Notes: generated by a model not told the origin, from the sequence alone. Shown: positions 2,193 to 3,341, counted from the stretch's first letter. The stretch: 24,000 nt of DNA from Alkaliphilus serpentinus (GCF_009017255.1 NZ_WBZB01000052.1:1-24000), one strand, 5' to 3'. Numbers and translations are program-made.

Positions 2193-3341
2193 CTATATAA
2201 ATAAATCTAGTAACAATAATGCCATTCCACCTAACACTCCTATTGCTACAACAGGGATTAGCCTGAGGGTTTCCCTTTGAACCCCCGAAAAGGAAGTAAA
2301 GGTGGTGGACCCTGTAAAATTAGTTCCTAGATACCCCATGATAGAAGCCATCAACAATAGATGTCCCAGAGTCTCATAACTACTTCCATATATAAAGAAA
2401 AAGTCTCTAAAATGATATACTACTCCACTCCATACTACAGCTAAGAAAAGAGCTTTTACGAAGAACATCCGAAAGGGCAATAGTGGTAATAGTGCAGGTA
2501 AAACCAAGGTTACTATTGCAATTGCTACAACATATGCAAAAGCTGTCATCACAGTTGAAATCCATAGTCCCTCAGTAGTTTTAAATAAATTGTATAGAAA
2601 TATCAGTATCAAAACTATAGGGAAATGCTTCATAGACATTATAAACTCCAAGGGGGAAACCAACAATCTCTCCTTTAGAGTGAAGGTTACCCTTCTCATC
2701 TCCCCAGTGGCCTTAAAACCATTTTCAATATAGCTTTTTATGTCACTGGCCCTAATAGGACCAAATTCTCCTTTAAAGCCTGTGTACTTAAATATTTCGT
2801 GGGCTGCTACCCCCGGAGCTGATAATTGAGGTAAAATTAATCTTCTATGATTCACCAATTCATCAAGCTGGTTTTTCTTAACCTGATAGATTATTTCCTC
2901 AGCTGAAAAGCTACCTTTTCCTGCAGCACACCATACATTTATCCCCTTGGTATCGATCACTAAAATCCATAAATTTAGGTTCTTTAATTCCCTTCTAAGC
3001 TGATCTAGGGTTAGCTTATAGTTAGCTGTTACCAAAATAGGGGATTCTTTATGGGGGGTTCCTACAGCATATACTCCTGTAGGTACATGATAGTTATCTC
3101 TATGGATACCGAATCTAACCTTCAGGTGATCAAGATGATCCTTTCGTACCAACTGAGTTTTGAGTCTTTTAATATTCCCAATAGCTGTTTCTATTTCGCC
3201 ATTAATGGAATGGGCCATATACTTATCACTGATATTGCAACGGTCTTCAGAATACTTCTTTAAAATTTTGTCCTCCAAACTGGAGGTTGTCTCTGATGGA
3301 CCTCAACAGGACTTTCCTTGAGATTTCATTTCATCATTCAT
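2193..3341 (-). CDS. hgcA: HgcA, corrinoid mercury methyltransferase, read from ATG 3341 through an in-frame TGA (3305..3303) as putative selenocysteine; 382 aa
   Basis: Signature cap-helix motif NVWCAAGK (2939..2916) within IDTKGINVWCAAGKGSF, a CFeSP-like N-terminal domain, and about 5 C-terminal TM helices. The track start TTG 3278 has no SD. The ATG at 3341 has AAAGAGGTGA 5 nt upstream and is in frame, separated only by one TGA. Confidence 0.75.
3272..3305 (-). other. In-frame UGA of hgcA plus downstream SECIS-like hairpin
   Basis: On the minus strand, UGA (3305..3303) is followed 16 nt later by the perfect hairpin CCUCCA-GUU-UGGAGG (3286..3272), with G-U in the apical loop. Confidence 0.45.

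Follow-up and report, generated by a model that had tools for sequence, protein, structure and literature searches.

The stretch of DNA analyzed here (the window) comprises 24,000 nucleotides from Alkaliphilus serpentinus with a GC content of 36.9%, and contains the genes hgcA and hgcB on its minus strand. The open reading frame of hgcA matches A. serpentinus KAB3526333.1 with 100% identity, a protein of 361 amino acids annotated from TTG 3278 under the name 'acetyl-CoA synthase subunit gamma'. Its match to the NCBIfam model NF040863 (HgcA_corrinoid) reaches 380 bits against a cutoff of 275 and covers profile positions 1-324 of 325. The predicted cap helix reads G-I-N-V-W-C-A-A-G-K, in agreement with the N(V/I)WCA(A/G)GK motif that provides the cobalt-ligand cysteine, and W116 and C117 of this motif are invariant in alignment A1. 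The cap-helix Cys codon (motif N-V-W-C-A-A-G-K; Cys138 in full-length numbering) is located at 2928..2930 on the minus strand. The ferredoxin gene hgcB lies directly downstream, as expected for a neighbor of hgcA.

Several other gene sets flank this pair. A divergent set for non-homologous end joining (NHEJ) occupies positions 3479-6091 on the plus strand and includes Ku (3479-4288) followed by two separate open reading frames with a 76-nt overlap, one for an ATP-dependent ligase domain (4290-5135) and one for a LigD primase-polymerase domain (5060-6091). Directly 3' of hgcB is an open reading frame of 200-210 amino acids with its own Shine-Dalgarno sequence (1282-1914, minus strand), for which no significant Pfam match was obtained. 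This frame is missing from the same position in A. hydrothermalis (locus L172), where azlC directly follows hgcB. Farther away, a cluster of the lactate-utilisation type (13060-20185, minus strand) encodes a LarA-like protein, a FAD-linked oxidase, EtfA, EtfB, a GntR regulator, and a lactate permease.

The region upstream of the annotated hgcA start contains a second candidate start site. A Shine-Dalgarno sequence, AAAGAGGTGA (3347..3356, minus strand), is followed after the 5-nt spacer gttgt by ATG 3341, and just 5' of it a consensus scan detected a putative promoter with an extended -10 element (TTATCA and TATAAT separated by 16 nt, the latter preceded by TG; 3379..3406, minus strand; 10/12 matches). 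From ATG 3341 the frame runs through 11 more sense codons, the last of which is TGT, into a single in-frame TGA at 3305..3303, and then through eight sense codons to TTG 3278, which opens the 361-residue frame 2193..3278 in the mechanical list of open reading frames. TTG 3278 lacks a Shine-Dalgarno sequence and is buried within a hairpin at 3286..3272; the TGT-TGA pair (3308..3303) is located 24 nt upstream of it. If the TGA is read through, the full hgcA gene spans 2193..3341 on the minus strand, from ATG 3341..3339 to TAG 2195..2193, with 382 codons. The TGA (3303..3305) is then codon 13, a predicted selenocysteine (Sec, U), preceded by Cys12 (TGT, 3306..3308), and the annotation lacks an N-terminal extension encoded by 3279..3341, MNDEMKSQGKSC-U-GPSETTSS. 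The first-pass annotation of this DNA had proposed the upstream ATG with its Shine-Dalgarno sequence, the single TGA after TGT with an open frame into hgcA, and the lack of a Shine-Dalgarno sequence at TTG 3278, and all of these features and their coordinates were confirmed on the minus strand.

Elsewhere in the window, TGA serves as the ordinary stop codon of three genes (5060..6091, 8077..8958, and 22524..23201), two of which had likewise been noted, and this indicates that the genetic code is standard and that any recoding is local. A scan of the whole window for other TGA-interrupted frames yielded none beyond the hgcA site and a second site in hgcB described below. ARAGORN detected no tRNA in the window, so selC is not located there, and no sel genes were found within it.

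To compare HgcA N termini, the best 120 homologues were listed and upstream DNA was fetched for close relatives. Alignment A3 consists of the window sequence and 10 close relatives. The TGA is conserved in 11/11 aligned sequences, with the TGT of Cys12 as its invariant partner (columns 10-12), and a TGY-TGA pair precedes the called start in 10/10 relatives. The frame from the TGA remains open into HgcA in every close relative, and a Shine-Dalgarno sequence and ATG were found at the matching place in 9/9 close relatives read by eye. In P0007, P0008, P0020, P0009, P0015, P0023, and P0021 (the last being A. hydrothermalis), the in-frame TGY-TGA lies 5' of the called start, and a short open frame with its own Shine-Dalgarno sequence and ATG runs ahead of the pair. 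The recurrence of TGY-TGA, start codon, and hairpin in 10/10 relatives indicates that the arrangement is more than chance, and the extension behind the upstream start is conserved as an open frame, a point that the first-pass annotation had put forward for testing.

That annotation had also raised the question of whether relatives carry Cys-TGA or Cys-Cys at this position, and both were observed. In close relatives, the extension reads M..NK[SA]C-U-V[VI]EK..SSLEE, and Cys-Cys homologues read M..EKSCC... The pattern [KNRQE][SPATN]CC occurs within the first 30 residues in 18 of the best 120 homologues. N termini of this type, such as MEKNKPCC (Dethiobacter), MENKSCC, and MSNEKSCCCS, align with G-K-S-C-[TGA] of the window, placing the TGA opposite the second Cys; others among the best 120 start at MEERLK or just past the site. 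Since many HgcA proteins have K-S-C-C here, the site presents a standard Cys/Sec pair. Two unbiased, protein-seeded scans retrieved 159 loci with the cap-helix motif, of which 33 are of the Cys-Sec (CU) type (two of these look spurious), 82 have Cys-Cys (CC) without CU, and 44 have neither or are interrupted by a contig end. The pairing is also evident between loci, for example EGPCUGPKPPP (L046) versus DTPCCGPKPGP (L026).

A third reading of the site, ..NK[SA]CW.., appears in the closest homologues among the best 120 (~50% identity). For P0002 and P0005, the DNA shows that W corresponds to TGA, and their loci were flagged as not translating to the listed protein; here, 'CW' is a product of gene calling with translation table 4. 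The use of this table on AT-rich contigs thus hides Sec codons as Trp in the protein database. 'CW' calls were seen in public metagenome proteins P0002-P0006, P0045, P0055, and P0118 and at loci L001, L002, and L085, with P0002 and P0005 being the two verified in DNA.

The hairpin downstream of the hgcA TGA, CCUCCA-GUU-UGGAGG (3272..3286, minus strand), was examined as a candidate bacterial selenocysteine insertion element (SECIS). It starts 16 nt after the TGA, is formed by perfectly complementary arms (CCUCCA, 3286..3281; UGGAGG, 3277..3272), and sequesters the annotated TTG 3278. The constraints of the bSECISearch model (quoted in PMC13188914) are a loop of 3-9 nt, a stem of 4-16 bp, a G in the first two loop positions, a UGA-to-loop distance of 16-37 nt, and a folding energy no higher than -7.5 kcal/mol. 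With a GUU loop, a 6-bp stem, a distance of 22 nt, and -8.4 kcal/mol for the hairpin alone, the hgcA element agrees with every one of them; 5/200 shuffled sequences fold as well. In the 11-sequence alignment, 92% of the cells of the helix are paired, compared to 30-59% when the partner is slid by 1-3 columns. Three pairs show compensatory changes, and 0/500 shuffles reach the observed covariation score. These changes are mostly synonymous, with TCC/TTG in the window becoming TCT/TTA in L001 and the G.U-paired TCT/TTG of L003 as an intermediate. The existence of the perfect hairpin and its SECIS-like nature, both put forward by the first-pass annotation, are thus borne out by the fit to the published model and by covariation among relatives.

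The hairpin was further compared between locus types. Across all clades, an element of SECIS geometry follows at 41/42 CU loci and at 28/82 CC loci, for which each CC of the extension served in turn as the anchor (Fisher p = 4e-13), indicating that the hairpin tracks the TGA rather than the protein sequence as such. Two properties of the hgcA element count against a Sec reading: its z-scores in a longer context are modest (-1.5 and -0.8), and the hairpins of AT-rich relatives reach only -2.5 to -6 kcal/mol. An Rfam scan of 1850..3450 with E values up to 10 returned chance-level matches only and no SECIS family, a further point against the Sec reading. Separately, a consensus scan had marked 3272..3286 as a terminator-like site on the plus strand. 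This candidate was rejected: it is the hgcA hairpin seen from the opposite strand, with a stretch rich in T behind it, and the plus strand has no gene terminating at that point.

The same data bear on a rival arrangement, in which a genuine 12-codon upstream open reading frame ends at TGA 3305, translation of HgcA begins farther downstream (TTG 3278 or an ATG beyond it), and the hairpin has a regulatory role, for example in translational coupling or attenuation. Such an arrangement would agree with the database annotation, which begins at TTG 3278, with NF040863, whose match does not draw on any residue of the extended HgcA before position 57, and with the activity of recombinant HgcA from strain ND132 that lacks the extension. 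However, it would place initiation at a codon devoid of a Shine-Dalgarno sequence and enclosed in a hairpin. It would also leave several regularities without a role: a Cys codon invariably precedes the TGA, CC-type homologues form one continuous protein across the site, the frame from the TGA into HgcA is open in every relative, and the hairpin follows the TGA and not the Cys. An upstream open reading frame is therefore considered unlikely.

A second recoded codon, absent from the earlier annotation, was identified in hgcB. The hgcB frame 1959..2186 stops at TGA 1961..1959, immediately after G-V-G and at the position of Cys73 in ND132 HgcB. Read-through adds U-AYAIIKGWLTGSEPTC before TAA 1910..1908, a conserved continuation of 16 codons, and defines a full gene at 1908..2183 on the minus strand (ATG 2183 to TAA 1910..1908, 91 codons) in which the TGA (1959..1961) is codon 75, a predicted Sec. 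Both CX2CX2CX3CP motifs of HgcB are present (CSGCGGCIEVCP and CIECGGCMKNCP), with the TGA at the Cys73 position. The read-through tail raises the score against NF040864 (HgcB) from 90.7 to 114.5 bits, across the cutoff of 99, even though the C-terminal Cys-Cys, typical of 'nearly every' family member but not strictly defining, is absent in A. serpentinus, where the protein ends in ..EPTC followed by TAA.

The sequence around this TGA is shared with relatives. GVG-U-AYAI[IL]KG is common to the window, L001, L004, L086, L171, and L172 (A. hydrothermalis), and GVG-U-AYA is also found in L005 (Peptoclostridium litorale) and L050. Sec-type HgcB accounts for 8/125 sampled sequences, and Cys-type HgcB with G[VT]GC-A occurs in L003, L085, L087, L169, and L170. 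Over the 13 codons after the TGA, six sequences differ by 70 synonymous versus 30 non-synonymous codon changes, which argues that the tail is under protein-level selection; compared to L001, the window protein is identical in this segment, with synonymous changes only. A hairpin, GGCUCACU-GGU-AGUGAACC (1918..1936, minus strand), follows with its GGU loop 30 nt from the UGA, in keeping with bSECIS geometry. Across the eight Sec-type genes, 92% of its cells are paired and six of eight pairs show compensatory change. In A. serpentinus, the element contains one C.A mismatch and folds at -5.8 kcal/mol alone, which counts against the Sec reading. The Sec-type hgcB genes adjoin a CU-type hgcA in 8/8 cases (window, L001, L004, L005, L050, L086, L171, and L172) and a CC-type or other hgcA in 0/8, an association (Fisher p ~9e-6) that is uncontrolled for phylogeny and for the Sec trait itself.

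The C termini of these proteins vary. A single C-terminal Cys is found in HgcB of both Alkaliphilus genomes (..EPTC in the window and ..SRPC in L172), and ..NCC is retained in the Sec-type HgcB of L001, L004, L086, and L171. At three loci (L086, L087, and L171), the apparent stop codon of hgcB is a TGA that adjoins the C-terminal Cys-Cys. For L086 and L171, this terminal TGA lies 17 codons past the recoded one, so that within one short mRNA UGA would specify both Sec and stop.

This last feature is relevant to the possibility that the UGA codons are read by a standard tRNA for Trp, Cys, or Gly, or under a variant code, instead of by Sec-tRNA. Gene callers did choose table 4 for the contigs of several relatives. 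Nevertheless, TGA is the stop codon of three ordinary window genes and appears to end hgcB after Cys-Cys in the three relatives just described, and the combination of hairpin and Cys pairing is the signature of Sec. Decoding by a standard tRNA or under a variant code is thus regarded as extremely improbable.

Alternatively, both TGA codons could be relics in a genome that has lost its Sec machinery, in which case HgcA would be truncated or not made and HgcB would end at residue 74. The C.A mismatch in the hgcB hairpin and the single terminal Cys of HgcB in place of Cys-Cys could be seen as signs of such decay. On the other hand, both TGA codons retain intact contexts, the 13-codon segment beyond the hgcB TGA encodes the same residues as in L001 within a clade that shows the excess of synonymous changes, and the congener A. 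hydrothermalis has kept both TGA codons. Taken together, these observations make a relic state very unlikely. With respect to the machinery, 11 selenoproteins in Alkaliphilus metalliredigens provide a precedent at the genus level, and selABC and tRNA-Sec have been reported for P. litorale, which shares the arrangement of CU in HgcA and GVGU in HgcB; literature mentioning A. serpentinus yielded nothing on selenium.

Based on the Cys/Sec pairing, the fit of the hairpin to the SECIS model, and its covariation, local Sec recoding in hgcA, the central proposal of the first-pass annotation, is supported. Judged from sequence comparison, the UGA in hgcA very probably encodes Sec, making hgcA a selenoprotein gene with its true start at ATG 3341. 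A model consistent with the signals and their conservation would have ribosomes load at the Shine-Dalgarno sequence 3356..3347, initiate at ATG 3341, and translate 12 codons before meeting UGA 3305..3303. The hairpin 3286..3272 would act as a bacterial SECIS that recruits SelB with Sec-tRNA(Sec), resulting in SelB-dependent insertion of Sec at codon 13, a step for which pairing, SECIS fit, and covariation argue alike. The predicted product is a 382-residue HgcA in which an N-terminal tail of ~55 residues with vicinal Cys12-Sec13 precedes the corrinoid domain, with Cys138 in its cap helix, and the membrane domain. The hgcB mRNA would be recoded likewise at UGA 1961..1959, placing Sec at codon 75, which corresponds to Cys73.

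In functional terms, Cys12-Sec13 may capture Hg(II) or a Hg-thiolate and feed the methyl-cobalamin site at the Cys138 cap helix. By analogy, and following Haft and Gwadz, the most likely role of the pair is to bind Hg(II) or Hg-thiolate for methyl-cobalamin in a manner that parallels the C-terminal Cys-Cys of HgcB. A 2024 PNAS study on the purification of HgcAB cites the Sec of HgcA as a sequence-based suggestion and reports that recombinant ND132 HgcAB expressed from the old start still methylates. Because this protein is active, the core chemistry does not depend on the extension, and the Cys-Sec pair is probably accessory rather than essential. A more far-reaching proposal concerns the operon as a whole, in which Sec13 of HgcA, Sec at the Cys73 position of HgcB, and a single C-terminal Cys might constitute a distinct two-selenolate route for Hg(II) to methyl-cobalamin. 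We consider this doubtful; if it were correct, methylmercury formation in these organisms would depend on selenium supply. The alternative to such a route is two independent Cys-to-Sec swaps.

More generally, what these results add beyond the published description is the covariation of the SECIS and the specific association of the hairpin with TGA, which were unquantified in the original paper. Their practical value is corrective. In GenBank, both genes are truncated and misnamed: HgcA lacks its first 21 residues, and HgcB, listed as a '4Fe-4S binding protein', is cut at residue 71 (71 aa). A RefSeq accession, WP_151866975.1, is attached to the truncated HgcB, and the truncated HgcA is listed without one; an exact-sequence look-up of the extended HgcA and HgcB, with 'X' for Sec, found neither in the protein collection. 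Catalogues of hgcAB, primers, and HMM surveys that use such calls miss the N-terminal Cys-Sec site, and they can also lose the truncated HgcB, which at 90.7 bits falls below the family cutoff of 99. Constructs that begin at the old start would, as the extension suggests, lack the native metal-handling tail. A selenolate beside a thiolate in HgcA, together with Sec at the essential Cys73 of HgcB, would link selenium supply to methylmercury production.

Among known systems, vicinal Cys pairs that handle Hg(II) are found at the C termini of MerA and HgcB, and mammalian thioredoxin reductase has a Gly-Cys-Sec-Gly center. The Cys-Sec pair of HgcA resembles these in presenting adjacent thiol and selenol groups on a flexible terminal segment. 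The likeness is a chemical analogy only: there is no sequence homology, nor any sign here of redox cycling. The hairpins of the two genes resemble bacterial SECIS elements in being small, in lying within the coding sequence, in having a 3-nt loop that starts with G followed by U or G, and in their spacing, with the loop 22 nt (hgcA) and 30 nt (hgcB) after the UGA. Unlike bacterial SECIS models, they have a very short stem (6 bp) and match no Rfam model, and they appear to lack a bulged U of the kind found in the E. coli fdhF SECIS. Gram-positive SECIS elements with a GGU loop are cited by Haft and Gwadz (bioRxiv 10.1101/2022.07.06.499078; published as J Bacteriol 205:e0025922, 2023).

The closest known systems are the HgcA and HgcB selenoproteins described in that work. 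The first-pass annotation had treated HgcA as not known to be a selenoprotein, which is incorrect. Haft and Gwadz (2022/2023) reported that most HgcA have a CU motif ahead of the old start and that HgcB has Sec at residue 73 in 17/266 sequences, and added reference data to the NCBI PGAP pipeline (bioRxiv 10.1101/2022.07.06.499078); a 2026 review lists HgcA (NF040863, CU) and HgcB (NF040864, GVGU) among prokaryotic selenoproteins. In the literature searched, no experimental incorporation of selenium into any HgcA was found, the assignment being described as sequence and codon analysis. The window HgcB matches the Sec73 type (NF040864, GVGU) in that its TGA immediately follows G-V-G and takes the place of the ninth conserved Cys, and differs from the usual HgcB in a tail that ends in one Cys instead of Cys-Cys. 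The window HgcA agrees with the published CU proteins in its single UGA right after Cys, upstream of the formerly predicted start, and in having CC-type homologues with Cys at the same site. Its S-C-U-G-P matches the published P-C-U-G-P, a clade consensus of 20 examples rather than a defining motif, in 4/5 positions. In contrast to the published set, it belongs to a Clostridial clade with a short leader rich in lysine and asparagine, and the site in its closest relatives is [SAT]-C-U-V/S instead of PCUGP. Because Haft and Gwadz described HgcA with exactly this N-terminal CU motif, the claim is not new: the CU extension is already known at the family level, and the A. serpentinus locus is one more member.
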